From Candidatus Latescibacterota bacterium (GTDB lineage Bacteria; Latescibacterota; UBA2968; UBA8231): 64,000 bases of DNA. Below, piece after piece: positions 29,151 to 57,335 of the stretch (its first letter is position 1; each line of letters begins with the position of its first letter). The stretch spans positions 2,016,001 to 2,080,000 of the forward strand of contig CBDFJF010000002.1 of NCBI GenBank assembly GCA_965248265.1, given 5' to 3'. The notes beneath the pieces are model-generated. The model had not been told where the DNA came from. It made no database searches and was given only the letters and a program-made list of their open reading frames with translations. A program made the position numbers and the translations under genes.

Positions 29151-29360
29151 CTGCAACGGTAGTAACGATGTGTACGTGGGGTTGAACACGAGAGAGGCTG
29201 CTCGCAGGTGACGGAGCAGCCTTCTCTTTTGTGGCATCCAACAAGCCAACACACCATTTTCGGAACCAGGTCCCGGTAACCTGTTGTGGCCAACTCAGCT
29301 ACAGGTCCGGAAAGTATGTGGCCATGGAGGCATCCTCTTAGCAGCAACAGGGAAGCACTG

Positions 29361-32300
29361 ATGGAAGAGAAACCAAAACGACCCAGCATCAACGGCCGGG
29401 GTGTGTGGCAACAGTTTACCATCCAAGACGGTCTTCCTGACATGAAGATCGAATGCATTTATGAGGACTCTCAGGGAATACTCTGGATAGGCACACACGA
29501 TCGAGGAGTAGTCCGCTATGACGGCAGAGAATTCCAGACCTTCACTCGTCAGGACGGACTGTCTGGTGATGGTGTATTCAGCGTCATTGAGGATGAGTCT
29601 GGTACGCTGTGGTTTGGGACCAATGGGGGAATAACGGCCATGGATGGTGGCGCCTTCGTCCAATTGGAAGGAACAGAAAGCCTAAGTTGCCTTTGGGGAG
29701 TTTGTGTCAGCGATGGTGCCATATGGTTCGGTTTGGAAAAAAAACCTGCGCAGTCGCCTGCGGTTTGCCGCGTATGGGGCAAACAGAGAGAAGTGCTGTT
29801 TGCGGAAGGTGATCCACCAGATGCAGGTGGGAGTATTCACCGTACGGTGTCTGATGGTATGGGTAGTGTACTGTGTGCCGGACAGGGCGTTTTCCTATCC
29901 AGCGATGAAAGTATGTCTTCGATCTCGAGTCTAGATTCGCTGATACATGTAAACGATATGCTTCTTCGATCTGATGGTTCAATTTGGATATCTGAATACC
30001 GGGGAATTTTCAAGTATGAACCCTCGGAGGATCGAATTGAGTGTATCTCGTCAAACAGAAACGTAGAGGCGTTGGCTGAGGACGCTGACGGTGTTGTATG
30101 GCTTTGTGGAAACAATGGAAAGTTGTGGTCTTGGGATCCGGTAGCCGGTTTTGAGGAGAAGCTAGACCTCGATGCTGTGTTTTGGCGTGGAATGATATTT
30201 GACCATCGAGGTCGGCTGTGGATCGGATCTTACGGATCGGGTCTGGTCTACTATGAGGAAACGAGGATACAGGTTTTCGGTTGCGCGCAAGGATTGCCCA
30301 ATGAACGAATCAGGAATGTTGCGTTGGACAAAGATAAGCGAGTATGGGTCGGCACTGAGTCAGGTTTGGCGGTCGTTGGCAATTCTTCGATTGAACCTGT
30401 TGGTGCACAGCTTCTCGCAGAAGAAAAGATTTCAAGCTTGGAAGTGGATCGGTCGGGCCGATTGTGGATTGGCACACGAGCCGGACACGTGATTACATAT
30501 TTCAACGGTGAGTTTACAGAGCAGGAAGCGGTCCGGGAGTTCGAGCGATACAGTATTAGCAAGTTGGCGGTAGACTCACTTAATCGAGTTTGGTTCGCTT
30601 CTCGCCATGGCCTCGGATTCGGCTACTACGATGACGGCATAGTGCAACACTATCCCGCTACACAAGAGGAGAACTATCCCACATGGGTCGGTGCAATGGC
30701 TGCGGACAAAGATGGACACATATGGATCGGTTCCGCCGAACCAAGTAAATGGAGCGGGCTATGTCGCGCAGGCGATTCAGAGCTAACCAGATATCCCTTG
30801 GCAGAGGCATTGCCTATTTCATCTCTGTGTGTTGAGGATCAAGTGGTCTGGATCGGTTCAAGCGAAGGGTTGTTTTCGTTGCACAGACGGACAGGAAGTT
30901 TATGCAAGACAACACAACGGCTTTCGTGCCAGATCGTAACCGCCATTACTGTAGCCAGCAACGGAACCCTGTGGATAGGTACGGAGGGGGGTGGCGTAAA
31001 TCATTACGATGGGACCACTGTTCAAGCCATACAGATCCCAGGCGATGTCCAGCGCAACGTTATCAACGACATCTGCGAAGATGTCTTTGGTGATATGTGG
31101 ATTGCTACCAATTGCGGGTTGGTGAGGTTCCAGAGGACGAGGATGCCTCCATCCGCCGAGATTCTAAGTGTTCTTGGGCAAGATGAGCAAAACGGTTCCG
31201 AAGAGGTCCGGGCGTACAAGGCGGGGCGAGAGATCACCATCAGGTTTTCTGGATACAGCCCTGACGAGCACACCTCCCACCTAACATTTCTGTACCGCCT
31301 TGTCGGCTGCGAGGACGATTGGAATCAAACGGATGAGACAAGTGTAAGCTACGCTGGCCTAAAGCCTGGCTCATATCGCTTCGATCTTCGAGCTGTTGAC
31401 CGTGACTTGAACCGGTCAGAGATCGCTTGTGTCGAGTTGAGTATTGCACCGACGCCCATGGATGTTGCCTTGAATGAGGCACTGTCAGGAGACAGCGGAG
31501 GCCAGGAGTTTATTGGTCACAGTGCATGCATTCTGGAGGTCATGGACAGGATCAAAGACGTGGCGCCGAGCGACCTAACGGTCTCGATTTTCGGGGAGAC
31601 TGGCACTGGGAAGGGGTTGATCGCCAGAGCCGTACACGCGCTGAGCGATAGAAAATTAGGGCCTTTCGTTTCCGTGAACTGTGGCGCGTTACCCGAAGGC
31701 CTTGTAGACAGCCAACTATTCGGTCATGAACGTGGGGCATTCACCGGTGCGTCTGCTCGGAGAGTGGGCAAGTTCGAGCTAGCCGACAGCGGTAGTATTT
31801 TCTTGGACGAAATCGGAGATCTGCCAATTGAATCCCAGGCAAGGTTGTTGCATGTCCTTCAAGAGTTGTCTATCGAGCGAGTTGGCGGTAGTCGGCAGAT
31901 TCCCGTTAGTGTGCGGGTTATAGCTGCAACCAACCGAGACTTGCCTCAAGCTGTTCAGGAAGGGTATTTCCGAGAGGACCTATTCTATAGGTTGAACGTT
32001 TTCGCCATCGAAATGCCACCCTTGCGAAGGCGTCGAGAAGACATAGGTGAGCTAGCAGAGTTTTTTGTAGCACGATTTGCGGAACATCTGAATCAACGGC
32101 CGCCCAAGATCTCCAGCGACGCGATGAAGATCCTAACTGGATATGAGTGGCCTGGCAACGTGCGCGAGCTGGAGCACATGATGCAACGAGCTGTCTTGTT
32201 GGCGAAAAGTGACGTCATCCAGTTAGCCCATCTTCCTAGTGTTGCTGAAGAACAGATTGCAGATCAAGGTAGCCTCGTGATACAGCCTTGGGCTGCCCAC

Positions 32301-32450
32301 GAGCGTCGCTATCTTGAGCAAGTTCTCGACCAAACAGAAGGTGTTATTTATGGTGACAACGGGGCGGCAGCCCTATTGGAAATCCATCCGAATACACTGA
32401 GAAGCAGGCTAAACAAGCTTGGCATAAAGGTAAGAAAGAAAAAAGAGTAA
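29361..32450 (+). CDS. Sigma-54 enhancer-binding protein 1: two-component-regulator beta-propellers, Y_Y_Y, AAA+, HTH (no TM)
   Basis: Repeated D..G.LW.GT blades; YRLVGCEDDW...YAGLKPGSYRF; GETGTGKG, FGHERGAFTGA, FLDEIG, YEWPGNVREL; HTH GAAALLEIHPNTLRSRL; start chosen by alignment to the paralog. Confidence 0.92.
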   Translation: MEEKPKRPSINGRGVWQQFTIQDGLPDMKIECIYEDSQGILWIGTHDRGVVRYDGREFQTFTRQDGLSGDGVFSVIEDESGTLWFGTNGGITAMDGGAFVQLEGTESLSCLWGVCVSDGAIWFGLEKKPAQSPAVCRVWGKQREVLFAEGDPPDAGGSIHRTVSDGMGSVLCAGQGVFLSSDESMSSISSLDSLIHVNDMLLRSDGSIWISEYRGIFKYEPSEDRIECISSNRNVEALAEDADGVVWLCGNNGKLWSWDPVAGFEEKLDLDAVFWRGMIFDHRGRLWIGSYGSGLVYYEETRIQVFGCAQGLPNERIRNVALDKDKRVWVGTESGLAVVGNSSIEPVGAQLLAEEKISSLEVDRSGRLWIGTRAGHVITYFNGEFTEQEAVREFERYSISKLAVDSLNRVWFASRHGLGFGYYDDGIVQHYPATQEENYPTWVGAMAADKDGHIWIGSAEPSKWSGLCRAGDSELTRYPLAEALPISSLCVEDQVVWIGSSEGLFSLHRRTGSLCKTTQRLSCQIVTAITVASNGTLWIGTEGGGVNHYDGTTVQAIQIPGDVQRNVINDICEDVFGDMWIATNCGLVRFQRTRMPPSAEILSVLGQDEQNGSEEVRAYKAGREITIRFSGYSPDEHTSHLTFLYRLVGCEDDWNQTDETSVSYAGLKPGSYRFDLRAVDRDLNRSEIACVELSIAPTPMDVALNEALSGDSGGQEFIGHSACILEVMDRIKDVAPSDLTVSIFGETGTGKGLIARAVHALSDRKLGPFVSVNCGALPEGLVDSQLFGHERGAFTGASARRVGKFELADSGSIFLDEIGDLPIESQARLLHVLQELSIERVGGSRQIPVSVRVIAATNRDLPQAVQEGYFREDLFYRLNVFAIEMPPLRRRREDIGELAEFFVARFAEHLNQRPPKISSDAMKILTGYEWPGNVRELEHMMQRAVLLAKSDVIQLAHLPSVAEEQIADQGSLVIQPWAAHERRYLEQVLDQTEGVIYGDNGAAALLEIHPNTLRSRLNKLGIKVRKKKE

Positions 32451-32746: not shown

Positions 32747-33466
32747 ATGCGCCCCAAAATCATCATTGCAGATAGTGAACTAGATTACTTGCCAAACGTC
32801 AGGACTGGAATCCTGGCTGGCTGCCACTTCGTCCGTGCAGCAAGCGAAGACGATGTGATGACTGAAATGCATGCTGCACCCGGCGCATGTCTTCTCTTGA
32901 TCGATTCTGGCAGAACCGAAGACAGTTCTTCAAAGCTGCTACGGAGAATCAAGGAGAAAGGGCGTCGCAGCAGCAAGGTGGTTTGCACTGCCGAGAATCC
33001 AACTGTTGAGCTTGTTATCGCCGCTTTTAAGGACGGCGCTTGTGATTTCATCCCAAAGCCAGCTTCACACAGCGAGGTGCTTTCCACCGTTCAAGCTCTG
33101 GTCCATTCCGCCGAAAGAATGCCGAGTTACTGGGCGCGTCGACTCGACGCATATCTGATTGACAACTTGTCCAATCCCGATCTCAACCTCGCATTCTTGC
33201 AAACACACTTCGCCGTGTCGAAGAGTTATCTTTCAAAGCTCTTCAGGTCTGAGATCGGCGTGCCATTTCGAGACCGGTTGATGAGATTCCGAATGCTAAA
33301 AGCAGCTAAGCTTATCGAAACTACGGACCATCCGATCTACCTGGTTTCATACCATTGTGGATTCCGAAGTCAATGTCGGCTTACTGAGGCATTTACGCGT
33401 TATCATGGACTCGGGCCTCGAAGATATCGTGAGGCACACAGATCTCAATTTTCTCGTTCAAACTAG
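32747..33466 (+). CDS. Response regulator with REC and AraC HTH domains
   Basis: IIIADS...LLLID...GACDFIPKP receiver; SKSYLSKLF...RMLKAAKL...CGF...F.R.HG..P..YR AraC. Confidence 0.88.
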   Translation: MRPKIIIADSELDYLPNVRTGILAGCHFVRAASEDDVMTEMHAAPGACLLLIDSGRTEDSSSKLLRRIKEKGRRSSKVVCTAENPTVELVIAAFKDGACDFIPKPASHSEVLSTVQALVHSAERMPSYWARRLDAYLIDNLSNPDLNLAFLQTHFAVSKSYLSKLFRSEIGVPFRDRLMRFRMLKAAKLIETTDHPIYLVSYHCGFRSQCRLTEAFTRYHGLGPRRYREAHRSQFSRSN

Positions 33467-33581: not shown

Positions 33582-36500
33582 ATGATGAAACCCGAGGCTC
33601 GTCCATACCACAGGGGGATATGGGAGCACTTTACAGTGCAGGACGGCCTTCCAGACATGAAGGTCGAATGCGTGTACGAGGACTCAAGGGGGGTGCTCTG
33701 GGTGGGAACGCACAACCGCGGATTGGTCCGGTACGATGGGGATGACTTTCAAGCGTTTACTACCAGAGAGGGTCTTTCTGGAGACGGAGTTTACAGCATA
33801 ATTGAGGATGAATCCGGAACGCTATGGATTGCAACCGATCGCGGTTTATCAACTTTCGACCAGGAGAATTTCCACAATGTCGATGTTGGTGTTGACTGTG
33901 GTTTCCTCTGGGGTGTTGACAGGGATGCTAAAGGCAATTTGTGGTTCGGGCTGCAACGCCGGCCAGGTTTACCTCCTGCGGTCTGCCGGGTAACAGAAAA
34001 TGATTGCAACATTGTTGTTGTGGACGAGACCGACGAGGCATCAGGGACAAGCATCCATTGCATCAGGACCAATCCAGAGGGCAATGTTTGGGTCGGCGGA
34101 CAGTCGGGATTGTATGAAAGCGAGTTTGATGGACGTTTTTCCCCTCTGAAGCAAGAATGGGACGTTTACGTCGTCGGCGACATACTCCCGACGGGGTCAA
34201 AGGGTATGTTGGTTGCAGCATACAACGGTTTGTGGCGGTTGGGGGATGGGGCTGCTGAGCATTTGCTTGCTGAAAGCGATAGTGGTCCAGTTTCATTAGC
34301 CCACGTTGATGATGATGTCTTCATGGTTTGTACGTATGACGGGCGCTTGCTTCGCGTTCTTGGGGACGAGGTGCAGCTGATTCACCATCTGAATTCCGTC
34401 CACACGGGAGGATTTGTATTTGATAGTGAGGGAAGATTGTGGATAGGTACGTATGGGTTGGGTCTGTACTGCTATGACGAAACCAGGCTTCAGATAACGC
34501 GGATGGACAGTGTTTCACCCAGCGCCTCAGTTACCTGCTTGAACACCGACTCCCACGGCGAGTTGGTTCTGGGCACTCGCCAAGGGGTGTTTGCTCTTGG
34601 TGATGCTGGTTTTTCGGCTCTCCGTAAATCTGAAACGCTTTCGAATGCCGAGATTACAGGTGTGCTGTTCGATAGTTCAGACCAATTGTGGTTGGGTACG
34701 CGCAATGGTTGGATTTACAGCCGCATTCAAGGGACGCTCAACCAGCATGAACTCGATCCGGCATTCCTCGGTTACAGTATTGATGCATTGGTAGAAGACA
34801 ACCATGGGCGAATATGGTATGGATCTCGGAGTGGGCAGGGGTTCGGCTGCATAGCTGATGGGAAGTCGGAGTTTTTTCCACCTGGTGGGAATGCCAATTA
34901 CCCATCTTGGGTGCGGGCAATTGCACGAGATCGATTGGGTGGGATGTGGCTCGGTTCTGCTTCTCCAGGGGATTGGGATGGGATTTCCAGGTACCGGGAA
35001 GGGGAGTTTGAGCAGATAAACGGGTTTTCAGGAGCAGCAATTCTGTCTCTTATGGAAGATCGCGACGGACGTATGTGGGTGGGCACGAACGAAGGCTTGA
35101 CCTGCATAGATGAAGACTATCTCATGACCTTCACGCAGAGTGACGGACTCTCATGTGAGATTGTAACGTCAATATTTCAAGCACGGAATGGGGTGTTGTG
35201 GATTGGCACTGATGGGGGCGGAATCAGCTGCTACGATGGTCAGGTGTTTCAGGCTTGGCGCGTGCCTCACGATCCAGCATGTAACGTCATTCACGATATT
35301 GCTGAAGGGCGAGATGGTGTAATCTGGTTTGCATCTGAAGGTGGTCTTATAAGGTACGAAGCAGGCCAGACGAAACCCACTGTTGATGTCGTTGAAGTCA
35401 TCGCAGATATAGCGTACCCCGTGCCTTCAGAGGTGCAGTTCCCGACGACGGTTGGAAGGATGACATTGCGATTCCGTGGAGTTAGTTCTTGCGACAGGGC
35501 GGAACACCTTGTTTACAGATATCAACTTCATGGTTACGAGAATGACTGGCAGCAAACAAAGAGTGGTCAGGTTGAGTACTATAAGTTGCAGCCTGGAGAG
35601 TACGTCTTCTACGTCCAGGCGGTTGACAGAGATTTGAACTACTCCAAACGCGCTGAGGTGCAGGTCGTAGTAACTGAAGACCCTCGTATCGAGGCTCTGA
35701 ATGATGCTCTTCGTGCAGAGGGTGCCAACGGTGAGTTCATTGGGAATAGTACGGCGCTAAGTGAGGTCAAAAGGCAAATTCGGGAGGTTGCTTGGACCGA
35801 TTTGACAGTGTTAGTGCTTGGAGAGACCGGCACCGGCAAGGGATTAGCGGCACGCGCGATTCATGATTCCAGTGAGCGCAACGAGCAACCGTTTATTCAC
35901 GTCAACTGCGGGGCTTTGCAGCACGGGCTCGTCGATAGCGAGTTGTTTGGGCACGAACGAGGAGCTTTCACTGGAGCTATCACTAGAAAGCTAGGGAAGT
36001 TCGAGTTGGCAGACAAAGGGACCATTTTTCTCGACGAAATTGGTGACCTCCCACTTGAGTCTCAAACGAGGTTGTTGCGGGTCTTGCAGGATCGCTGCAT
36101 TGAACGGGTAGGAGGCACCCAAACACTATCAATTGATGTAAGGGTGATCGCTGCTACAAATCGAGATCTCGTTGGTGCTGTGCGCGGAGAGAAGTATCGT
36201 GCTGATCTCTATTATCGGCTGAACGTGTTTCCTATTCGAATACCTGCACTCCGGGAGCGACAAGAGGATACGCCTCAGTTGGCTGGGCATTTCGTGAAAC
36301 GTTTCGCTGCCCATTTGAACCAAACCGCTCCGCGCATCAGTGATGCTGCCATGCAAATGTTGATGTCATACAGCTGGCCCGGGAACGTGCGCGAACTAGA
36401 GCATGTTGTGCAGCGAGCAGTGATTCTGGCGAAGGAGCAACAAATTGAACCTGTTCATATCGGCATTGGTCCTCCAGCGACGATAGTTCAAAGTGAGGAT

Positions 36501-36690
36501 CTGGCAGAGTTCCTCCCTCTACGGGAGCACGAAAAGCGCTATCTGGCGAAGGTGCTTGAGTTTACGGGGGGGGGTAATCCATGGGAAGCGCGGTGCTGCG
36601 CAATTGCTGAATATCAAACCCACAACCCTGCGGAGTCGACTTGAGAAATTGGGATTGATGAAAACCAAGCGCGTAGCGAAAACCAACTAA
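33582..36690 (+). CDS. Sigma-54 enhancer-binding protein 2 (paralog of EBP1), frameshifted in a G9 tract just before the HTH
   Basis: Same architecture with intact GAFTGA; removing one G from 36566-36574 gives FTGGVIHGKRGAAQLLNIKPTTLRSRLEKLGL* (stop 36690), matching the EBP1 HTH. Confidence 0.9.
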
Positions 36691-36723: not shown

Positions 36724-36850
36724 TTACGATATGTCGTAAAATCAACATTCGTTACTATATATCGTAAGTTATTACGTAACATGTTGACATGTATTCAATT
36801 ACACTAGAAAAAGGGATGTATGCCATAGAGTAATTTACGACATGTCGTAG
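36724..36850 (+). promoter_or_regulatory. Three palindromic enhancer (UAS) sites, TACGA-N4-TCGTA type
   Basis: TTACGA-TATG-TCGTAA 36724-36739; TTACTA-TATA-TCGTAA 36752-36767; TTACGA-CATG-TCGTAG 36835-36850. Confidence 0.75.
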
Positions 36851-36912: not shown

Positions 36913-36946
36913 AGTCGTTTGAGGTATTCCTCAGGCGACTTTTTTT
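36913..36946 (+). terminator. Intrinsic terminator directly upstream of the sigma-54 site
   Basis: AGTCGTTTGAGG-TATT-CCTCAGGCGACT followed by T6. Confidence 0.7.
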
Positions 36947-36949
36947 GTT

Positions 36950-36965
36950 TGGCATACATCTTGAT
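36950..36965 (+). promoter_or_regulatory. Sigma-54 promoter (variant -12, TTGA) of the peptide operon
   Basis: TGGCATACATCTTGAT; 115 bp from the third UAS versus 113 bp at the paralogous promoter. Confidence 0.65.
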
Positions 36966-37032: not shown

Positions 37033-37251
37033 ATGAGTTTCAGATCGATAGCTGACTGGTGTGCGAAAGGTATGGCAGTAGTTGGTGCAGTTGCTTTGGC
37101 GGGCAGCGTTGGCGCAGAAGCATCCTCACATGAGGCGGCGTTGAGCCAAGACTCCTCGCTCTATGTGCCTCAAGCAGATGTCTCAGTTGGGTACGTGGTA
37201 GCAGGTGATTTCGATTCTGATGGCGGCGGGAATCCGCCTAAGCCTGAGTAA
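37033..37251 (+). CDS. 72-aa secreted precursor-like peptide, copy 1
   Basis: AGGAGG RBS; Sec-like signal ending AEA (residue 30); C-terminus YVVAGDFDSDGGGNPPKPE. Confidence 0.9.
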   Translation: MSFRSIADWCAKGMAVVGAVALAGSVGAEASSHEAALSQDSSLYVPQADVSVGYVVAGDFDSDGGGNPPKPE

Positions 37252-37359
37252 CACTGAATCTTCTCGAATCTCACCGTGTTAGATGTTCTGCGCCTGCAGG
37301 TCGGGCGAAAACTGTTACGATTTTCGCGGACAGGTGGGTCCATCTCTTAGGAGGAAATC

Positions 37360-37578
37360 ATGAGTTTCAGATCGATAGCTGACTGGTGTGCGAAGGGTTT
37401 GGCAGTAGTTGGTGCAGTCGCTTTGGCAGGTAGCGTTGGGGCAGAAGCATCCTCACATGAGGCGGCGTTGAGCCAAGACTCCTCGCTCTATGTGCCTCAA
37501 GCAGATGTCTCGGTTGGGTACGTGGTAGCAGGTGATTTCGATTCCGATGGCGGCGGGAATCCGCCTAAGCCTGAGTAA
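37360..37578 (+). CDS. 72-aa secreted precursor-like peptide, copy 2
   Basis: Identical to copy 1 except M14L; 7 of 8 nucleotide differences are synonymous. Confidence 0.9.
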   Translation: MSFRSIADWCAKGLAVVGAVALAGSVGAEASSHEAALSQDSSLYVPQADVSVGYVVAGDFDSDGGGNPPKPE

Positions 37579-37984
37579 CCGACGGCTTAATCTTCTTCGG
37601 TATCTACCGTGTTAGATGCTCTGCGCCAGCAGGTTGGGCGAAAACTGCTAAGATGGGGCAGGCAGTTGCATCAATATTCGACGGCGCTTGATCTGCGGCG
37701 CGAGCATCTTACGGTCCTTGTCTTCTTCCACGGATACTCTCTCGCTCACACAATCAGGCCTCTCGTAGTCGCTCGCTCGTTGCGCGACCGAGGTTATCAG
37801 GTCGTTCTGGCCGGACGTGGACCTCATGCGGTTCGCATTCGGGAGGAAGGCTTTCGTGTGTACGATGTGGAAACGCTCCCGCAGGACAGGATGGATCAGT
37901 TCGTCGCTCGTGGCGACTACATGTACTATGACTATGAATGGGTGGATAGATGCGTTTGATACTCCCCCGGAAAAATGGACACCG

Positions 37985-38854
37985 TCAAGCAGCAAGTTTG
38001 GTTGAATGCTGCTCGAATGCTGCGGGTGTTGCGTAATCCAGGGTGGAATGACTCCTTTCTCGATTGTAAAAAATCTCGATGTAGTCGAACAGGCTGCGAT
38101 ACGCGGCCCGGTAGTTGAGCCAGTGTTCGTGGTAGGTCAACTCGGTCTTGAGCAGATGGAAGAAGGACTCAGCCACGGCGTTATCCCAGCAGTCGCCCTT
38201 ACGGCTCATACTCTGCACAAAGCCGTGTTTGCTGACCCAGTTAGTGAACGCGGTGCAGGCGTATTGAACGCCGCGATCGGAATGGATGATCAGACCCCTC
38301 GGCGGACGACGTTGAGCTACAGCCCGCTGCAGCGCGACCAGCGCCACGCGGTGATCCAGTGCCGAGCTCAACGCCCAACCCACCACGCGCCTGGAGTACA
38401 GGTCGATGACGACGACCAAATACAACCAGCCGCGACCGACGCTGAGGTAGGTCAGGTCGCTGACCCACACTTGATTGGGGCGCTGTGCGGTGAAATCGCG
38501 CTGCAAACGGTTCGGCGCCACCGCAAATCGATGTTGCGAGTTGGTCGTCACCTTGAAACGGCGTCGCACAATCGAACGCAGACCCAACACACGCATGCGC
38601 CGTGCAACGCGATTCTCGCCCACCTGCCAGCCTCCGTCTATCAGGGCGCGGGTGATCTTTGGGCTACCGGAGCGCCGCTTGCTGGCTTCAAACAACTTGT
38701 TGATCTCGACATCCAGTCGCCGAGTCTGCTCAGCTCGAGGACTGATCGGGCGCTGCTGCCAGGCGTAGAAACCGCTACGCGACACCCGCAGCACGCGACA
38801 CAACATAGTGACCGGGTACATCGCCTTCTCCACCTCGATGAAGCGATACCTCAT
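37985..38854 (-). CDS. IS3 transposase OrfB (DDE/rve)
   Basis: WVSDLTY, IDLYSRRVVGW, HSDRGVQY, SRKGDCWDNAVAESFF. Confidence 0.96.
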   Translation of the reverse strand: MRYRFIEVEKAMYPVTMLCRVLRVSRSGFYAWQQRPISPRAEQTRRLDVEINKLFEASKRRSGSPKITRALIDGGWQVGENRVARRMRVLGLRSIVRRRFKVTTNSQHRFAVAPNRLQRDFTAQRPNQVWVSDLTYLSVGRGWLYLVVVIDLYSRRVVGWALSSALDHRVALVALQRAVAQRRPPRGLIIHSDRGVQYACTAFTNWVSKHGFVQSMSRKGDCWDNAVAESFFHLLKTELTYHEHWLNYRAAYRSLFDYIEIFYNRERSHSTLDYATPAAFEQHSTKLAA

Positions 38855-39138
38855 CTGGACTCGTTGGCGAAGAAGGCCGCCGCCTTTTTTAGGATATCTC
38901 GTTCCTGGGACACCCGCGCCAGCTCACGCCGCAAACGGCGGACCTCCTCGTCGTGATCACCTAAATGGCCGGTACCTGGGAAGGCTTCATCTCCTTGGAC
39001 CTTCAATTCTCTCTTCCAACGACTGATAATGCCTGCACTTAAACCCAATCGTTGCTCGACCCCTCGGGCCGATACCCCTTCTTCTGCGGCCAGGCGAATG
39101 GCCTCGAGCTTAAACTCACGATCATACTTGCGTGACAT
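38851..39138 (-). CDS. IS3 transposase OrfA (HTH) with an A6G -1 frameshift site
   Basis: MSRKYDREFKLEAIRL...ERDILKKAAAFFA; AAAAAAG at 38884-38890 on the minus strand; GGAGG RBS. Confidence 0.93.
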   Translation of the reverse strand: MSRKYDREFKLEAIRLAAEEGVSARGVEQRLGLSAGIISRWKRELKVQGDEAFPGTGHLGDHDEEVRRLRRELARVSQERDILKKAAAFFANESR

Positions 39139-41410
39139 AAGAACACCTCCTGCCAGAAATTTAACTTGGCGCTTCGAGGTGTCCACTCTCTTGGGGAAGT
39201 ATCAGTTCAGTCCGAGCGCCTGCTGCTCAAAATGCTCAAGCCCCAGTTCGTGATTCATGACATGAAGCCGACGGCGGCGATTAGCGCTCGCCTCGAGGGG
39301 GTCGATGACGCGAAGATAACTCAGGCTTACAACCAGCCGGGTTACTCAGAGGTCATCCATCTCCCAGACTGGTTTTCGACTGAATCTGGACCTTTCGACG
39401 AATACCTCGCTGATCATGCCTGTGAGGCGAGCGCACAGCAATCCTTCTGCATGCTGGCCGACATCCCTGAGTTCCACCCCAACGACGAGGAAGCGGGTGG
39501 ATACCACTATGTCGGTCCCTTACTCGATCAGCCCGCCGAACCCGAGCATGTAGAGTTACTTGATGCCGATTGGGACCAGTCGCTGCCTCTTGTCTATCTG
39601 ACGTGCGGAAGCAGCGGACGATCGCCCGACTATCTGGATGATTTCATCGCGGCGGTGAAAGACCGTCCCTTTCGGGTCCTGATCACGACGGCGGGTCGGT
39701 GGACTGATTCCAATGAGGGGGCGGCGTTGCCGCGCAATGTGCGCGTTACCGATTTCGTCCCGGGGGAGTGGGTTCTGAGGCGAGCACAGATGATGATCGG
39801 GGTCGTCGGTATCGGCTCGATCTACCAGGCTCTCGGAAATGGTGTTCCCGTAGCCGGCGCGCCGGAGCATCTCGATCAAGAGTACCACCTGAATCGTGTC
39901 GAAGCGCTGGGTTTGGGTGCCAAACTGGACCGTCGGGATCTCGGCACAACGACCCTCATCGATGCGATCGAATCCATGCTCGCGAATCTCAAGGGCTTTC
40001 AAAAGCGCTGTGCCGTTTTCTCGAGCGCCCTCAAGGGATTCGATGGCGCCAGTCGGGTTGCCGACCTGGTGGACGCTCATTTTATATCCCGGAACAAGGC
40101 CTATAGAGTTGACCAGTCCGAAATGGTGACGGCCGAGGAGTTCCTTCACTACCTGAATCACACAACCCCGCCGGAACTGTCACGGGAAGAGGTGAGCCGA
40201 ATTCTGCAGAATGGGTTGCGCAGCGGGATTCCACATTGCCGCCAGAGCAAGCGTATCTATTTCGACCATTTGGACAGCTGGAATTGGCTGTATGACAACG
40301 AGCCGGCCTTTTTCGAGGCCGATTATCGGGCCTCAGAGAACAAGCGGCGCCAGTTTTTCGCCAGCAACAACGGCCACGTGCGCTGCCTCGAGGCTTGGCA
40401 ACGATTCCAGGTGACTTACCAATACAGGATCTTCCCTCGACCGCCGGCCGAGTACAGGCCGCTGGCGCCGGGTCAGCGACTCAAGCTGTTCATCCCCTTC
40501 CCGATTCACAAACCCGGACATCAGATCGACGTTGAGCTCAAGTCGTGCTCATCCGAGGCCATGGTCTCCTCTTTCGTGCCTCAACTCGGATTCATGTATG
40601 GCTTCGAGAGCGAGGTGCACTCCGACTCCAGGCCGCTGGAGTTCAGTTACAGCTGTGAACTGAGTGTTCGTGAGCAGGGTACGGGCGAAGGAGAACGCGA
40701 GCTCACCGAAGCGGAGCGTCACGGCAATCTGGAAGTCGACCCCGAGATCGCGCGGCTTCCGGAAGTGATCCAGTTCAGGCAACGGTTGGCCCCGGCGGAT
40801 GATAGCCGAGCTGCCATGGCGCGCGCCATCTATGATGAACTGGCTCGGTCGAGGCGCTTTCGCAAAACGAAGGACCGCTCTCACAACATGCTTTACTGCA
40901 CCGCCTCGATTCTGAGCGGCAAGAGTGGCCACTGCGTGACGATGTCACGCGCCTACATGGCTCTGTGCCGCCTCGAGGGCATACCGGTCCGTGAGATCTC
41001 GGGTGCACTTGCAGGCTATCCGTCGGGAAATGGCGGGTTCCAGATGAAGACCTATTGCGAGCCGGTCTTCGGACATACCTGGGTTGAGATCTTTCTGGAG
41101 GGGGAAGGGTGGATGCCTGTGGAGTTTCATTCCATCGTCATCGGTGAGCAGGCTCTCACCAAGGGCAACGTAACCGACGACGTTACCAGGGCCCTGGTGG
41201 CTGAGAACTCAAAGCGGTATCACGACTACTACTTCGGCAATCTGGACAATCACCGCCTGGTGTGCTCGAACTCCGTCAAGCAGATCCCACAGGCCATGGT
41301 CGAAGACCCCACGTTGCCCCTCGACCACGATGATCATTGGTCCCCGGCGCACGATCTGCGCTATGACTGCTCGCTGCAGTTTACGAAGGTGTGAGCGCGA
41401 GAGGACAGGC

Positions 41411-42505
41411 ATGGTCGATATCAGTGTAATCATCCCGACATACAATCAAATGGAGCGGCTGCGTCTGGTGCTTTGCGGCCTCGAGAATCAGCGTCTGGAG
41501 TCGTCACGCTATGAGGTCATCGTCGTCGACGATGGCTGCACGGACGGTACACCGGAGATGGTAGCACAGCGCATGGCGGATGGGGATTGCGGGAATCTCA
41601 GCCTGATTTCTGCCAATCCGAAAAAGGGTCGCAGTGCGGCGCGCAATCGGGGGCTTGAGGAGGCCACGGGTGATGTGGTCGTATTCCTCGACGGCGACGC
41701 TCTTCCCGCACCGGATCATCTGGAGCGGTTCGCACAGGCGATTGAGGACCACGGTCCCCAATGCCTGCTGTGCGGCATGCAGTACAGCTTGCCCGAGCTC
41801 GAGTTTTTCAAGGATCCGCAGAGTGGGGCGCTATATCCGGATGTGCCGGTAGCCAGCGTCGTCAAGGATTACGTGGGCCTGCGTCGCCAGGAGCTCATCG
41901 TCACGGAGGAGATGATCATCCGCGATTTCGACGCCATCCGGTCAAGGGCCAAGGAGGGCGGCTACCCCTTCGAAGAATCGAAACGTCGTCAGGAGGAGGC
42001 ACGCGCGCTGCTGTACTCGCGACCCGATGCCGAGAGCACCTGGTTGGCTTTCATTCCGCACAACGGCGCCGGACCCAGACAGCTACTGTTGGAGGCGGGC
42101 GGATTCGACGAGGAGATCCCGTTCAGCGAGGGGTGGGAACTCGCCTATCGGATGCGGCGGGAGCACGGTTGTGACATTCGCTGGGTCCAGGCGGACACCT
42201 TCCATCTGTACCACTACCACCCGTTCCTGGACCCTGAAGGGGGAAAGCGCGAAGGGCAAATCCGCTATCGCGCCATCGAATACATGGTTGCCAAGCACGA
42301 TGATGAGCGCATCCGTCTTCTCTACTTCTGGTACGCCCACCTGTGGCCTGATTTCTACATCCCGCAGGAGGCCGTCGTTCAGGATCTCGTTCATTTCGAC
42401 CAACTGTACACCGATCTGTGCGCCGATACCTGGCGTCAGCACCAGGTGATTCTCGAGCACCATCCATCCCAATTTCTGAAACAAGCGATTGAGGCTGTGA
42501 TATGA
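41411..42505 (+). CDS. GT2 (GT-A) glycosyltransferase
   Basis: ISVIIPTYN, VIVVDDG, GRSAARNRG, FLDGD, GGFDE, HLYH; start ATG 41411 after GAGGA. Confidence 0.9.
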   Translation: MVDISVIIPTYNQMERLRLVLCGLENQRLESSRYEVIVVDDGCTDGTPEMVAQRMADGDCGNLSLISANPKKGRSAARNRGLEEATGDVVVFLDGDALPAPDHLERFAQAIEDHGPQCLLCGMQYSLPELEFFKDPQSGALYPDVPVASVVKDYVGLRRQELIVTEEMIIRDFDAIRSRAKEGGYPFEESKRRQEEARALLYSRPDAESTWLAFIPHNGAGPRQLLLEAGGFDEEIPFSEGWELAYRMRREHGCDIRWVQADTFHLYHYHPFLDPEGGKREGQIRYRAIEYMVAKHDDERIRLLYFWYAHLWPDFYIPQEAVVQDLVHFDQLYTDLCADTWRQHQVILEHHPSQFLKQAIEAVI

Positions 42506-43728
42506 TCCAGACAAACGGTACTCTCAAGGAAAAACAGCTCATAGAGGCACTGGAGCTGCACGAAAAGGGGGATGACCGTCGCGGTCTGGCCCTCGACTGC
42601 TATCAGCTCGGCGTCATTCACCAGGACGGGGGCCGCCTGGAGAGCGCCGAGCGTCTGTTTCGGCGGGCCCTGGTGCTGTGCGAAGCGCTGCAGGACATCA
42701 GTGGCGCGGCGGCGGCGCATGCGCGCTTGGGTCTCTTGTTCGAGATCTACGGCGACACCGGCCAGGCGAGGTTCTTCCTGGAGGAGGCTTGCCGTATGCA
42801 CCAGGCCGCGGAGGACAGGTCCGGCCTGGCGAGCGACTACGGGTATCTCGGCTTTATCGACTTCATCGAGGGTGATCACGCGTCGGCGGAGGAGCGTCTG
42901 CGTGAGGCGTTGCGCATGAATGAGCAGCTGGGGAACGAGGCTCGCGCTGCCGAGGACATGGGGAACATCGGCAATGTCTACCTAGCCAAGGGTGATTTCG
43001 AGGAGGCGGAGACGATGTATCACAAAGCCCTGGCGCAATACGAGAAGCTCGGCGATCAAAAAGGAATGGGCAGTCTGTATCGGAGTCTCGGACGACTGTG
43101 GCTGGAGCGCGATGATCCCGAGCAGGCAAAGGTGTTTTTCGAGCTCGGTCTCGGGTTGCACACGCAAGTGGGCTGGGTGCTGGGAGAGGCGCTACAGCAT
43201 GATGGCATTGCCCTGGTGTACGAACGAACCGGTCTCGCTGATAAGGCGGAGGAGTGTTACCAGCGAAGTCTGGAACTGTTGCGCGAAACCGGGCATCGCA
43301 CCCAAATCGCTCGAGCGCAGACGCAGCTGGGTACTTTGCGCGCGACCCGTGGAGAGCTGGACGGAGCCTGTGATTCGTTCGAAGAGGCCCTCGAGCTTCA
43401 CGAGCAAATCGGGGATTACAGCGGCGTGGCGTACGCCTGCAGGCGACTCGGGACGATCTACTTGAATCCTGCCAACCCCGATCTCGAGCGCGCTGAGCAG
43501 ATGTACCAAAAGGCACTGGGGATTTATCGCGAGCAGGGGGACGAACGTGGCGAGGGAGCGGTTTTCTCCGGATTGGGAAATCTGGCAGCCCGTCGTGGCG
43601 ATGTCTCGCAAGCCATCGGTATGTGGAAGGTCGCATCAGAACGGTTCAAGAAACTTGGCATCGTCGATCAGGTAGAGAAGCTGGATATCGCCATGAAGCA
43701 GATCTGGTCGCGCGGCATGGTCGCGTAG
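42502..43728 (+). CDS. Stand-alone tetratricopeptide repeat protein
   Basis: Consecutive ~40-aa repeats (A..Y..LG..Y...GD...A...Y..AL) over the whole length; ATGA coupling to the GT2. Confidence 0.9.
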   Translation: MIQTNGTLKEKQLIEALELHEKGDDRRGLALDCYQLGVIHQDGGRLESAERLFRRALVLCEALQDISGAAAAHARLGLLFEIYGDTGQARFFLEEACRMHQAAEDRSGLASDYGYLGFIDFIEGDHASAEERLREALRMNEQLGNEARAAEDMGNIGNVYLAKGDFEEAETMYHKALAQYEKLGDQKGMGSLYRSLGRLWLERDDPEQAKVFFELGLGLHTQVGWVLGEALQHDGIALVYERTGLADKAEECYQRSLELLRETGHRTQIARAQTQLGTLRATRGELDGACDSFEEALELHEQIGDYSGVAYACRRLGTIYLNPANPDLERAEQMYQKALGIYREQGDERGEGAVFSGLGNLAARRGDVSQAIGMWKVASERFKKLGIVDQVEKLDIAMKQIWSRGMVA

Positions 43729-43743
43729 AAAGAAGAAACCATC

Positions 43744-45012
43744 GTGACCTATCAGGATTCTTCCGGAACAAGAGCCGTCGGATACCGTGAGGTGTTGCGT
43801 GTTGTCACGCGACTTATGCGGGATCAGATCTGGCGCATGGACCGTCCCGAGGACTGGCAACGTGCGCTCACAGCCCTGATAGACGCGTTGAAGGCGTTGC
43901 GTATTCCATTCGACAGTTGTGACCTGCACCATGTCGATTCGGCGAGTGAGGCTCCTGCCATTCCGCACCTGTTCTCGTGGAGAGACAATCGCTGGCGTCA
44001 AACGGTTGTGGGAGAGGACAGGGACACAATTTCACAGATATGGCGACGTGGAGAGCCCGACCATCGAACCGACGTCGCTGCCGTCGACGCGCACGACCAG
44101 GGCGACATTTTGAGGATGCGGCATGGCTATGCCATCCGCTCGGCACTCGACGTTCCATTCGCCAACGGAGTTCTGTCGCTCTACAGCAGCTCCGCAAACG
44201 CGTTCTCGGAACGCGATATCGAGATGGTTATCGAACTCGCCGAGGGCCTCGTTACCCTGTACAACCGTCTCGATGATCTCAAAGAGTTGGAGGCCAAGCA
44301 ACGGCAGGTAGAGCAGGCACAGCGACTCGAAATGGTGGGGCAGTTGGCAGCCGGCATGGCACACGAAATCAACAACTGTCTGTCCGTCATTCTGGGGCAG
44401 AGCGAGTTGCTGCTGCTGGACCAGCTCGATCCGGGCGTTCGCGAGAGTGTCCAGCTGATTTCCAAAGCCGCCGAGGGAACCAAGTACAGCTCGCGGCGAT
44501 TGTTGGATATGGCGCGAGGACAGGAGCCTGAGCGGGCGCCGATCGATCTGAACACCCTGGTCATGGAATCGGTCGAACTCGTGCGTCGGCAATTCAAGCG
44601 AGAGGAAATCGAGATAGTCGATGAACTCGGTGCGGGGCTACCGCTCGTCAACGGTGAGCCGACTCAACTGCAACAGATCGTGATCAATCTGCTGCAGAAC
44701 GGTCGGGACGCGCTCAGGGGCAGAAGGCGATCGGGGCTTATTCGAATTCGGACACGGCGACTCGACAACAGGGTGACGCTGTCGGTCGAGGATGACGGGC
44801 CCGGCGTTCCCGAGCGCATCCGTGATAGAATCTTTGAACCCTTCTTCAGTACCAAGGAGAAGGGCAAGGGGACTGGTCTCGGTTTGAGTATCTGTCAGAC
44901 CATAGCTCACAACCACAGTGGCTACTTAAGACTTGAATCCTCATCCCGGGGCACCTGCGTTGTCCTGGATCTGCCTATCGCAGACAAGGCAGCATTGCAG
45001 GCGTTCAACTGA
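43744..45012 (+). CDS. Cytoplasmic sensor histidine kinase (GAF-like, HisKA, HATPase)
   Basis: RSALDVP..GVLSL.S...NAFSERD GAF-like; [33 protein letters not shown]; no TM. Confidence 0.9.
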
Positions 45013-45303: not shown

Positions 45304-47469
45304 TTGAAGATCGGTCTGCCGCAAGACTTCAGACAGTATCTCTCGATGCGGGGTACGTCCGTCACGGGTGAAGAGACGGCCGAGCACCGGCCATTGACCG
45401 TACGTGCACTGGTGATTGGCACCTTCCTGTCGTTCTTTCTCGGTGTCGGCTCCAACTACGCCGATCTGGTTATCTCCGGCAGCTACATGACCCTCGATTT
45501 CAGCGCACCGGGGGCGATCTTCCTCTTCCTCGTGCTTGTCGGATTCCTGAACAGCCTGTTCAAGTTGACCGCCAAAGACTGGCGGATCTCGGGCGTTGTG
45601 TTCGCTGCCGTCGCCGCAGCTTACCTAGCACACTTCTATCCCTATGACGACATGCCCCTATGGTCACCGGGGGTTCTGTTCACCAGCTTCCTCGTCGCCT
45701 GCCTGCTCGCGAACACGATGCTGGCCGCCATGGGCAAGAACATGGCCCTGAATCGCTCCGAGCTGATCGTCGTTTACGTCATGCTCATCATCGTGGCCTC
45801 GTTCGCGACGATGGGACTGTGCGAGACCCTGTTGCCGGCAATCACCGGCGTCTTCTACTACGCCAATCCCGACAACAAATGGGCCGAGCTGCTGTTTCCG
45901 CACCTGCCCCTCGACATCATGCTGGACGACGGCAATACCAACCGGTCGTTCTTCGAGGGATTCGCGACACCGGAGTATCGCATACCCTACGAGCTCTGGA
46001 TCCGGCCGATGGCGATGTGGGGCGTGTTTCTCCTGGCTCTGTACGTGGCCATGGTGAGCACGGCCGTCATTCTGCGGCGGCAGTGGATGGACAGGGAGCG
46101 CCTGTCCTACCCGCTGGTGCAGACGGCGCAGGAGATTATCCGCGGCGAAGAGGACAGCCGCATCGTCAACCCGTTCTTCAAGAGCTGGGCGATGTGGTCC
46201 GGGGCATCGATTCCCATACTGGTAGGGTTGTTCACTGGATTGAACCGCCATCTCGGAGGTTGGCCCGTCATCACGACCGGTTGGTCGTTCCCGATTTACG
46301 GTGGCCAGAGCATCAACATGACGCTCAGCTTCGCGGTCCTGGGTTTTTCGTACTTGATCGGGCCCGATATCGCCATGGGTATTTGGGGATTCGCACTACT
46401 GAACAAAGTGGAGAGCATGATTTTCGTGAGTCAGGGCGTGACCAAGCAACAGGAAGTGTGGGCGGTGAAGGTCTCCGAGCTGATGAACTACCAGGGTCTG
46501 GGCGCTCTGATCGTGTTCGTCCTACTGGGACTGTGGGTAGGTCGAGAACACCTGGCCCAGGTGGGGAGGAAGTTCCTCGGTTTGTCATCCAGGCTCAGCG
46601 ATGACAACGAGATCATGTCCTACCGCGCTGCCGTACTGAGCCTGCTGTCGGGCGTGATCGTTATGGTTGGATGGTTCGCGTACCTGGGAACGCCGCTGTG
46701 GGCGAGTGTTCTCTTTATCGGATTGGCCTTTATCATCTTCATCGGTCTCTCGAGGGTGGTCGCCGAATCCGGCATCCCCGCTATCATCTCACCTATGGTA
46801 GCGCCAGACTTCATGGTCTACGGCCTGGGCTCGAAGCTGCTGGGGACTCAGGCCATCGCCAACTTCTCGATGAGCTACATCTTCGCCACCGACATCCGCG
46901 TGTTTTTGATGGGCATGTGTGCGAACGGACTCAAGCTCGTCGAGGGCATGACGAAGACGGCTCGTCGCCAGGTGTTCTGGGCGATCATGATCGCCATCGT
47001 CGTCGGCTTGACGGGCTCTCTGTACACCATCATGGAGGCGTCCTACCGCGACGGCGGCATCAACACCTCCAACTGGTTTTTTAAAGGTATGCCGATCATC
47101 ATCTACGAGACCGCGGAGGCCGGTCTTGAAGAGAGTAGCGGAGTGTACTGGCCAGGCATGGGCTTCATGACGCTCGGCGGCGCTGGCATGCTGGGGTTGA
47201 CCTGGCTGCGCCAGCGCTTCCTGTGGTGGCCCCTGCACCCGATCGGTTTCCCCATCATGGCCAGCTGGATCGTCGACTGGATGTGGTTCAGTGTGTTCCT
47301 GGCCTGGCTGATCAAGGTAATCATCCTGCGGTACGGCGGTGCCGAGCTGTTCAACAAGAGCCGGATTTTCTTCCTCGGGATCATCACCGGCCGCATGCTG
47401 ATCTCTGGAATGTGGCTCGTCGTCGACTACGTGACCGGCTTCGTCGGCAACAGCATTTTCTGGATATAG
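45304..47469 (+). CDS. Polytopic membrane protein, DUF6785/DUF6784-like (OPT-related); start may be ATG 45346
   Basis: ELIVVYVM, LRRQWMDRERLSYPL, RVVAESG, WWPLHPIGF, WLIKVIILRYGG...FFLGIITG. Confidence 0.8.
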   Translation: MKIGLPQDFRQYLSMRGTSVTGEETAEHRPLTVRALVIGTFLSFFLGVGSNYADLVISGSYMTLDFSAPGAIFLFLVLVGFLNSLFKLTAKDWRISGVVFAAVAAAYLAHFYPYDDMPLWSPGVLFTSFLVACLLANTMLAAMGKNMALNRSELIVVYVMLIIVASFATMGLCETLLPAITGVFYYANPDNKWAELLFPHLPLDIMLDDGNTNRSFFEGFATPEYRIPYELWIRPMAMWGVFLLALYVAMVSTAVILRRQWMDRERLSYPLVQTAQEIIRGEEDSRIVNPFFKSWAMWSGASIPILVGLFTGLNRHLGGWPVITTGWSFPIYGGQSINMTLSFAVLGFSYLIGPDIAMGIWGFALLNKVESMIFVSQGVTKQQEVWAVKVSELMNYQGLGALIVFVLLGLWVGREHLAQVGRKFLGLSSRLSDDNEIMSYRAAVLSLLSGVIVMVGWFAYLGTPLWASVLFIGLAFIIFIGLSRVVAESGIPAIISPMVAPDFMVYGLGSKLLGTQAIANFSMSYIFATDIRVFLMGMCANGLKLVEGMTKTARRQVFWAIMIAIVVGLTGSLYTIMEASYRDGGINTSNWFFKGMPIIIYETAEAGLEESSGVYWPGMGFMTLGGAGMLGLTWLRQRFLWWPLHPIGFPIMASWIVDWMWFSVFLAWLIKVIILRYGGAELFNKSRIFFLGIITGRMLISGMWLVVDYVTGFVGNSIFWI

Positions 47470-47473
47470 GCAG

Positions 47474-52105: not shown

Positions 52106-52221
52106 GGCGCAATCAAAACGCGAACGAAGACTGTCCTCGCTGTGCTCGGCCAGTCTTTTGGAGTTCGCTTCGCGAACTCCCGGGGTGAATTGGCTTGAAT
52201 AAGGTGCAATCAAAACGCGAA
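52099..52221 (+). repeat. 26-bp direct repeat of a gene start flanking a 71-bp hairpin-containing insert
   Basis: TGAATAAGG(C/T)GCAATCAAAACGCGAA at 52099 and 52196; GGAGTTCGC-TTC-GCGAACTCC at 52160-52180. Confidence 0.75.
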
Positions 52222-57191: not shown

Positions 57192-57335
57192 TGATCCGGA
57201 CTACAGCTCCCGGTTGAAGGCCGGATCCACGGCTCGGTGTCGCGTTCACGTGCCCTCCGTGCGCCGGTTGCGGTGCGCCGATTCAGGCTTATCATACCTC
57301 AGGCCGTTGAGACTGTGAATGGAGGAGGACAACAA

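Follow-up and report, generated by a model that had tools for sequence, protein, structure and literature searches.

The window analysed here, a 64,000-nucleotide stretch of contig CBDFJF010000002.1 from a Candidatus Latescibacterota bacterium (assembly GCA_965248265.1), contains two tandem copies of a short gene, each encoding a peptide of 72 residues on the plus strand. Copy 1 occupies positions 37033-37251 and copy 2, which has a ribosome site of its own, positions 37360-37578. The pair lies between genes for sigma-54 enhancer-binding proteins (EBPs) and the gene for a fusion enzyme, termed GT1-TGase below, that joins a family 1 glycosyltransferase of the GT-B type to a transglutaminase-like domain. 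On sequence grounds the peptides form a new, previously unannotated family of Latescibacterota, and this family is strictly linked to one clade of the fusion enzyme within a conserved, sigma-54-type cassette.

Both peptide open reading frames (ORFs), read directly from the sequence, are real genes under selection. The copies differ at 8 of 216 compared bases; seven of these changes are synonymous, and the eighth (ATG to TTG) produces the conservative replacement M14L in copy 2. Counting by the Nei-Gojobori method gives 52.7 synonymous and 163.3 non-synonymous sites, with dS of 0.146, dN of 0.0061, and dN/dS of 0.042. The binomial probability that at least seven of eight changes would be synonymous is 3.2e-4, in agreement with the purifying selection proposed in an earlier note on this DNA, which had also recorded the two frames, their eight differences, the diverged DNA after the stop codons, and every residue position exactly. 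For an orthologous pair of peptides, from genomes G024 and G013, dN/dS is 0.47. In the 91 aligned columns that follow the stop codons of the repeat units, 61 matches are accompanied by 18 mismatches and 12 gap columns, so the non-coding part of the repeat has diverged about as far as the synonymous sites. A single difference is found in the 24 bases before each ATG, a region that contains the AGGAGG ribosome site. The repeat has a period of 327 bp, and each unit extends ~15 codons into the glycosyltransferase gene downstream. A relic of the GT1-TGase start therefore sits between the two peptide genes (37276-37350, plus strand, 24 codons read from the alignment, beginning MLDVLRLQVGRKLL), and the actual gene starts at 37609 with MLDALRQQVGRKLL, ~27 nucleotides (nt) after the peptide stop.

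A search with a single sequence returns just one other relative of the peptide, at 62% identity. Weak tblastn matches in the genomes of relatives (genus g14) proved on inspection to be peptides of 79 residues, placed between a sigma-54 EBP and an intact GT1-TGase of 829 residues. A profile built from ten peptides matches 13 clusters in a collection of 5.8 billion proteins and, against 1.84 billion protein representatives, yields 38 matches at E<=0.001, 33 of which are 65-105 residues long. The five long matches (P0135, P0155, P0159, P0163, and P0165) are taken as spurious repeat matches because they are Big_2/LRR or low-complexity proteins rather than FG-GAP proteins. Names attached to the homologues point to Latescibacteria or Latescibacterota, with some records labelled Gemmatimonadetes. 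A profile census of 168 species genomes of Latescibacterota places the peptide in 10 genomes from 8 of 49 genera, all within one family. Every carrier genome has one copy except the window genome, which has two; the tandem duplication is therefore specific to the window lineage. A Pfam scan of 43 family peptides gave no meaningful family match, an NCBIfam scan of the window peptide gave none, and the best score in an ESM Atlas look-up of the peptide (0.77) is under the level counted as a lead.

The same 43 sequences, aligned, define the anatomy of the family; the peptide of genome G009 came to light later. In the members, a basic N-terminus leads into a hydrophobic stretch, and beyond a variable linker come a strand-like core, an Asp/Gly-rich acidic stretch, and a Pro-rich tail. 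A basic residue precedes the hydrophobic core in 42/43 peptides, and the 12-residue core itself has a mean hydropathy of 1.6-3.1 across the family. The hydrophobic stretch follows the pattern W-x-A-R-x-L-A-...-L-L-G-K/R and is closed by G[KR] in 40/43, the exceptions being the two window copies and P0156. A few residues further on, a small-x-small site, which is a requirement of signal peptidase I, is present in 42/43 by a permissive hand rule; in the window peptide it is AEA at residues 28-30. By inspection, then, the N-terminus has the n-h-c layout of a predicted Sec/signal peptidase I signal, as the earlier note had suggested, and this region is conserved about as well as the core.

The core follows the pattern phi-x-phi-[S/G/A]-Y-phi-x-phi-[G/D], and its Tyr (Tyr54 in the window peptide) is the only nearly invariant hydroxyl of the family, present in 41/43 members. 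The window peptide additionally contains Gln39 and Gln47, the sequence VVA at residues 55-57, the 15-mer GDFDSDGGGNPPKPE, and Lys70. The tail takes the form PPxPE-COOH; its PP is found in 36/43 peptides, and the last residue is Glu in 39/43, Gln in 3/43, and Thr in 1/43. The predicted mature parts are acidic, with net charges of -1 to -13, and all but one of the 43 are free of Cys. This comparison separates the earlier proposals for modification of the peptide. Of the Ser, Tyr, and Asn residues put forward as glycosylation candidates, Tyr stands, whereas Ser and Asn are not conserved (Ser60, for example, is Arg in the G024 type). A transglutaminase crosslink between Gln and Lys70 finds no comparative support because Gln39 and Gln47 fall in the variable linker; Lys70 itself does not extend to the family, as only 11/43 peptides have a Lys within the last 8 residues. 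The acidic stretch of the window peptide (VAGDFDSDGG) does resemble the DxDxDG calcium loops of FG-GAP proteins, but a DxDxDG sequence, placed after the hydrophobic strand, occurs in just 11/43 members and, unlike genuine FG-GAP or EF-hand proteins, 0/43 match the Pfam models for FG-GAP, VCBS, or EF-hand at E<=10. A calcium loop common to the family is not supported.

Among the genomes searched, the GT1-TGase fusion is seen only in one family of Latescibacterota. It occurs in 33/168 genomes, all of family f1 (32/75 f1 genomes besides the window genome and 0/92 in other families), with as many as five matches per genome within genus g14 and a single gene in the window genome. Scoring of 8000 candidate proteins gave 157 at E<=1e-10, and the 120 of these that were listed all have PF01841 and nearly all have GT1 families. 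In 10/10 carrier genomes the peptide gene is directly upstream of GT1-TGase, an arrangement that supports the tie to glycosyltransferase and transglutaminase-like enzymes drawn from the window alone and answers the concern that homologous loci might lack such peptides. Across 30 fetched enzyme loci, the peptide is upstream in eight. A quick maximum-likelihood tree built from 23 enzymes with 700 residues or more (two short rows and five not located by motif were left out) places the peptide-linked enzymes in one group of nine rows with an SH-aLRT value of 88, and 0/500 label shuffles are as clustered; the careful tree search is unfinished, and the long branches L030 and L032 are flagged. Eight rows of the group have the peptide, and in the ninth, L027, a contig edge lies 53 nt from the start. 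Such a short ORF, adjacent to and co-inherited with putative modifying enzymes, has the gene arrangement of a generic precursor of a RiPP, a peptide made on the ribosome and modified after translation.

A second glycosyltransferase gene, of family 2 (GT2) and with the start M-x-I-S-V-V-I, follows the enzyme in 22/25 loci in which the enzyme was located by script; two of the misses end at the locus edge, and the GT2 of L032 was recovered by tblastn. Other enzyme clades have different genes upstream in place of the peptide. In the sister clade L019-L028 (g14), a signal-bearing secreted protein of 304 residues with a GCGCTG motif ends just before the enzyme gene and may be a different substrate of the same enzyme pair. 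In L033, a 472-residue FG-GAP-like repeat protein (positions 55-1471; GDFDGDG, DGDGDVD) with a C-terminal sorting-type domain ends at the enzyme start. Its echo of the GDFDSDGG sequence of the peptide may be coincidence, because the sister locus L034 has no such protein.

Structure prediction provides insight into the two halves of the enzyme. An AlphaFold2 model of the G024 protein, calculated from a 69-row alignment, has a pLDDT of 90.1 and a pTM of 0.84. Its first ~400 residues resemble, at Foldseek TMt values of 0.7-0.8 and also at the sequence level, UDP/TDP-glycosyltransferases of natural products and phenols, including UGT109A1 (1.1e-18), CalG1/2/4, OleD/OleI, YjiC, and GtfD, and the glycosyltransferase part of the window protein is assigned to EryCIII-like_C and UDPGT by Pfam. 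His45, in the loop FFHGYSLAHTIRP, is invariant in the 69 sequences, as are Asp333, Glu335, and His337 of the motif EHLDQEYHLNR, in which Gln334 is nearly so. By analogy, we take His45 to be the catalytic base and the D-Q motif to bind the sugar. The modelled N-half thereby has the features of a GT1 enzyme of the GT-B, UGT/MGT type.

The C-terminal 422 residues, modelled alone, reach a pLDDT of 93.1 and are predicted to comprise a helical part, a beta-sandwich, and a transglutaminase-like core. Seven fold matches have E<=0.001, the best being a putative cysteine protease (3isr, 8.6e-11) and TgpA (1.6e-6). The core matches PF01841 with a Pfam E-value of 5.8e-14, and a sequence search of the PDB with the C-terminal half returns TgpA alone at E 0.43, such that a fold search was needed for its placement. 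The alignment with TgpA equates Cys677, His724, and Glu740 with a Cys-His-Asp triad; all three are invariant, and Glu740 takes the place of Asp. The C-half, as modelled, is consistent with membership of the transglutaminase-like superfamily. A further fold match is S. pyogenes TglA (9crn), for which no paper was found; the 'TglA' of the literature is an unrelated pearlin precursor. Prediction of a complex between the G024 enzyme and its own peptide gives a score of 0.34, versus 0.00 for the best of 3 controls. The score mark is reached by 58/80 solved complexes and 2/110 mismatched pairs, and at <=0.60 by 7/80. The runs have at least 41% of contacts in common, and the pLDDT of the partner is ~30. 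The prediction weakly supports the pairing of enzyme and peptide.

The genes around the peptides, all on the plus strand, form a unit rich in regulators. The first EBP gene (EBP1, 29286-32450) encodes Reg_prop beta-propeller repeats, Y_Y_Y, a sigma-54 AAA+ domain, and HTH_8 according to Pfam, and is followed by a response regulator with a receiver and an AraC-type helix-turn-helix (HTH) domain (32747-33466, Pfam). The second (EBP2, 33582-36690; identified from Pfam, sequence, and translation) lies directly upstream of the peptides, also has Reg_prop/Y_Y_Y input domains by Pfam, and is the ortholog of the G024 EBP, with 47% identity. EBP2 is read in two frames, 33582-36644 and an HTH-bearing 36493-36690 (HTH sequence GVIHGKRGAAQLLNIKPTTLRSRLEKLG), with an apparent +1 shift in a run of 9 G at 36566-36574. 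Either the homopolymer was misread in sequencing, or the frameshift is real and possibly phase-variable.

Downstream of the peptides, the window GT1-TGase gene is in two pieces. Its 5' fragment (37609-37956) covers codons 1-116 of the GT-B, UGT/MGT-type part, with 61% identity to residues 1-114 of the G024 enzyme. Its 3' fragment (39205-41394, Pfam) encodes the rest of the GT-B part, the helical/beta-sandwich middle, and the transglutaminase-like core with Cys-His-Glu. The next genes encode a soluble GT2 (41411-42505, Pfam; probable start MVDISV within a longest ORF from 41330), an all-TPR protein of 408 residues whose start overlaps the GT2 stop (42502-43728, Pfam), and a soluble histidine kinase (43744-45012) with HisKA and HATPase_c domains and an N-terminal sensor part that has no Pfam match. 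By hydropathy, no protein of the cassette other than the peptide has a membrane-like stretch, the maximum in GT1 being an internal Rossmann strand. Searches by tblastn with the G024 proteins find the order EBP, peptide, GT1-TGase, GT2, TPR protein, and histidine kinase collinear in 7/7 loci with enough sequence (G024, G029, G019, G160, G009, G131, and the window). A second upstream EBP paralogue is also detected by tblastn in G029, G019, G160, and G020, and an AraC-type regulator lies between the EBPs in three (G029, G019, and G160) of six loci searched in this way.

Downstream of the kinase, 45304-54897 encodes a DUF6785/DUF6784 protein of 721 residues, a 1543-residue protein with an FtsX-like permease domain, and a 900-residue protein with no Pfam match; these genes are probably outside the cassette because they are not adjacent to it in G024. 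Further on, a 924-residue ORF (57237-60011) encodes an unusual fusion of two domains, peptidase M28 and aminoglycoside 3-N-acetyltransferase-like (Antibiotic_NAT).

The region between EBP2 and the peptides contains elements expected of sigma-54 control. A putative -24/-12 promoter, TGGCAT-N5-TTGA, is located at 36950-36964 on the plus strand, 83 nt before the first ATG. The pattern TGGCAY-N5-[TG]TG[ACT] is found 66-111 nt before the peptide ATG in 9/10 genomes (G003 is the exception), mostly with TTGA or TTGT instead of TTGC as the -12 element. Within the window the pattern is found twice against 0.75 expected, and so is not rarer than chance; the evidence for the promoter is its conserved position across genomes. 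Together with the nearby EBP genes and the presence of rpoN in the window genome, this position is consistent with a sigma-54-dependent promoter for the cassette. About 100 bp upstream of the promoter lies the palindrome TACGACATGTCGTA (36836-36849), a candidate upstream activating site for an EBP, and a second copy, TACGATATGTCGTA, lies ~110 bp upstream of the first. Similar TACGA-N4-TCGTA-like palindromes are present 170-315 nt before the peptide ATG in 8/10 genomes, and one of the two genomes that lack them has just 161 nt of upstream sequence. Peptide copy 2 has neither a promoter pattern nor a palindrome of its own. A short GC-rich hairpin followed by a T run (36920-36950, and likewise in L014, L017, and L018) abuts the -24 element and probably serves the upstream activator gene as its terminator.

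The break in the window GT1-TGase gene is caused by an insertion sequence (IS). An IS3-family element of 1248 bp (37957-39204, minus strand; orfA HTH_Tnp_1, orfB rve) splits the gene after codon 116. Its ends, read by eye, are imperfect terminal inverted repeats beginning TGATACT, and a 3-bp target duplication, GTT, is present at 37954-37956 and 39205-39207. The orfA/orfB arrangement, terminal repeats, and 3-bp duplication are those of the IS3 family. With the element removed, the frame continues as ...DRCVQSER..., which fits the family consensus DRCVxSER. The genome contains six copies of the element, the window copy included, that are 100% identical; the insertion is therefore recent, far younger than the peptide duplication (dS 0.146). 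The sequencing runs listed include none of RNA. Contigs from 4 runs of one sample were placed on 37580-39600, and none joins across the element. Unitigs enter it by 30 letters at the left end and 28 at the right, the bar for bridging being 31 letters. These contigs supply no independent proof of the junctions, and a rare allele free of the element may exist.

The constant place of the peptide between sigma-54 regulators and a glycosyltransferase/transglutaminase-like enzyme suggests a probable new kind of sugar-modified peptide, most likely a dedicated partner of the enzymes whose genes follow directly downstream and, most likely, their substrate. In the scheme favoured here, one or both sigma-54 activators, with their soluble beta-propeller/Y_Y_Y sensors, would bind the TACGA-N4-TCGTA palindromes and open the TGGCAY-N5-TTG promoter, leading to joint transcription of the peptide and enzyme genes. 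The GT-B domain of GT1-TGase would then add a sugar to the core of the peptide in the cytoplasm, likeliest at Tyr54, and GT2 may extend it. The TPR protein, the Cys-His-Glu domain, or both could hold or trim the peptide, for which the PPxPE-COOH tail would be an obvious handle. The n-h-c signal with its small-x-small site would route the product through Sec, with cleavage after AxA, to give a Cys-free, strongly acidic glycopeptide of ~40 residues. In the window genome, tandem duplication of the peptide gene came first and the split of GT1-TGase much later. Taken as a whole, the chain of cytoplasmic glycosylation, likeliest on Tyr, followed by Sec export is a tentative proposal that we place a little below an even chance.

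Several observations weigh against this proposal. Its chemistry is deduced throughout from gene content, such that modification of the peptide is a prediction, and we likewise infer that the peptide is a substrate, that Tyr is the modified site, in which order modification and export occur, and what the transglutaminase-like domain does. The core Tyr is replaced by Ala in P0151, by Pro in P0153, and by Phe in the G009 peptide, and so is not available as the acceptor in all members. The usual substrates of GT-B enzymes in this class are small molecules. With cytoplasmic enzymes and a Sec-routed peptide, modification must precede export, an order for which HMW1/HMW1C and the serine-rich-repeat adhesins are precedents. 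Of the 23 enzymes in the tree, 14 have no peptide family member in the fetched flanks yet have the same GT2, so the enzyme pair does not need the peptide. The conserved genes of the cassette include no exporter, ABC transporter, immunity gene, or dedicated peptidase. The weakness of the predicted complex also counts on this side. Finally, with its sole GT1-TGase gene split by the IS element, the pathway is currently broken in the window genome.

The strongest competing explanation is that the peptide is not a substrate at all but a co-regulated small secreted or regulatory peptide, with the sugars going to a glycan, a lipid, or another protein. It could act as a Phr-like signal, for which the earlier note put forward the C-terminal 15-mer, as a periplasmic calcium-binding acidic peptide, or by docking as a modulator on the kinase, on the TPR protein, or on the EBP propellers. 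This explanation stays alive because sister clades have the enzyme pair with no peptide and because three members have no Tyr. It also draws on the unusual wealth of regulators in the cassette (two EBPs, an AraC-type response regulator, and a histidine kinase) and on a signal region that is about as conserved as the core, which hints at a role beyond export. Against it, the peptide gene is strictly adjacent to, and probably co-transcribed with, the enzyme gene in 10/10 genomes, the gap between the two genes is just ~27 nt, and the two are co-inherited within one enzyme clade. The sensors of the cassette, moreover, have no membrane or periplasmic parts, leaving an exported signal with no evident receptor there, and the TPR protein has no effector domain by Pfam. 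On balance, we regard a role apart from the enzymes as unlikely but worth keeping in view.

The Phr-like form of this explanation can be compared with the Phr/RNPP systems of Firmicutes, in which a short Sec-signal pro-peptide with a conserved C-terminal part acts on a cytoplasmic TPR receptor that has an HTH or phosphatase domain. The cassette likewise encodes a short pro-peptide with a Sec-type signal and a conserved C-terminal part, with a cytoplasmic TPR protein nearby. Unlike a Phr receptor, this TPR protein matches TPR families only and has no HTH or phosphatase domain. The presence of glycosyltransferases in the unit, a diderm-type uncultured phylum as host, and the lack of an oligopeptide importer in the cassette are further differences from the Firmicutes systems.

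A less probable alternative, which we consider distinctly unlikely, reads the hydrophobic N-terminus as a RiPP leader recognized by the enzyme complex and the transglutaminase-like domain as a leader protease; the C-terminal glycopeptide so released would act inside the cell or be exported by an unlinked route. For a signal peptide, the N-terminal region shows unusually high conservation, the transglutaminase-like domain has an invariant Cys-His-Glu triad, and its best structural match is a putative cysteine protease. The B proteins of lasso-peptide systems, which are leader proteases, are transglutaminase-like C96 cysteine proteases (PMC10885120), so that a transglutaminase-like Cys-His core encoded beside a small peptide has a counterpart there. 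The differences are that Glu is the third residue of the triad, that a GT-B glycosyltransferase is fused to the domain, that its closest structures are 3isr and TgpA rather than a lasso protease, and that the cassette genes include neither an Asn-synthetase-like cyclase nor, by Pfam, a RiPP recognition element (RRE) or cyclase-like partner. A leader is also at odds with the full n-h-c layout, in which basic residues precede a 12-residue core of hydropathy 1.6-3.1, and with a small-x-small site at a fixed distance in 42/43 peptides.

More doubtful still is a role for the peptide as a glycogenin-like, Tyr-linked primer or anchor for a longer glycan, to give a peptide-linked surface polysaccharide. 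A nearly invariant Tyr (41/43) and two different glycosyltransferases in a row would suit such a primer, and the N-terminal domain of GT2, that domain only, resembles exopolysaccharide and glucan-chain enzymes. The matches of GT2 are generic, however, Sec would not let through a long glycan of cytoplasmic origin, and the conserved genes of the cassette include no polymerase, flippase, or export genes.

That the window ORFs are mere non-functional leftovers of a pathway broken by the IS element is least probable of all: the only GT1-TGase gene of the genome is indeed split and EBP2 has a frameshift in its G9 run, but a sequencing error in the homopolymer could account for the latter, neither peptide frame is interrupted (dN/dS of 0.04), and the six identical IS copies make the insertion far younger than the duplication (dS 0.146). 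Pup-like conjugation through the C-terminal Glu or Gln was rejected, given that Glu (39/43) is unusable as a transglutaminase acyl donor and that the peptide looks exported; PafA and Dop were not searched for.

Under the favoured reading of a glycosylated, exported peptide, the nearest comparison is with cacaoidin, a RiPP that is glycosylated on Tyr with a disaccharide. The cassette resembles cacaoidin and other GT1-glycosylated RiPPs in placing a small ribosomal peptide beside GT-B glycosyltransferases, with Tyr as the likely acceptor. It departs from cacaoidin in its Sec-type signal, in the lack of a classical leader and of lanthionine or other tailoring enzymes, and in the fusion of the glycosyltransferase to a transglutaminase-like domain under sigma-54/EBP control in Latescibacterota, with a modification that is predicted. 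The glycocins (sublancin and glycocin F, modified by SunS-type GT2 enzymes) are Cys-rich helical hairpins held by disulfides, with double-Gly leaders and ABC/C39 exporters. The cassette shares with them a peptide, a soluble family 2 glycosyltransferase, and TPR-like helical repeats nearby. Unlike glycocins, 42/43 of the predicted mature parts are Cys-free, the leader is signal-like, and no ABC transporter is conserved. On the sequence evidence, the product of the cassette is probably best likened to a glycosylated ribosomal peptide with an unusual, signal-bearing substrate and a fused enzyme.

A literature search found no paper that describes the cassette or that joins Latescibacteria, glycosyltransferase, and transglutaminase. 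A paper on sponge Latescibacterota reports, in its accessible part, antiSMASH classes only and no such cassette, and the related RiPP papers found concern thioamidated RiPPs, leader proteases, and lasso peptides.

On a wider reading, a new class of bacterial glycopeptides would have its founding locus here: a sigma-54-switched, Sec-routed, Cys-free acidic peptide would be O-glycosylated on its conserved Tyr in the cytoplasm by the fused glycosyltransferase, the transglutaminase-like domain would further process or couple it through its PPxPE/Q C-terminus, and the exported product would be a calcium-binding extracellular signal or matrix component that feeds back on the regulators of the cassette (two propeller-EBPs, the kinase, and the AraC regulator). 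We offer this as speculation and think it improbable in full.

To our knowledge, almost nothing is known of the secreted products of Latescibacterota, which are uncultured. The locus defines for this phylum a peptide family that had no annotation and a family of enzymes in which a GT-B glycosyltransferase is fused to a transglutaminase-like domain. The invariant Cys-His-Glu triad of the enzyme, like the conserved Tyr and C-terminal Glu of the peptide, lends itself to direct mutational tests. If glycosylation of the peptide is true, the cassette would represent a new logic of peptide modification, pairing a signal-bearing substrate with a fused glycosyltransferase/Cys-enzyme, and would provide a new handle for genome mining of such peptides, together with a testable sigma-54 regulon (promoter, palindrome, and two sensors) in a phylum that has no genetics.

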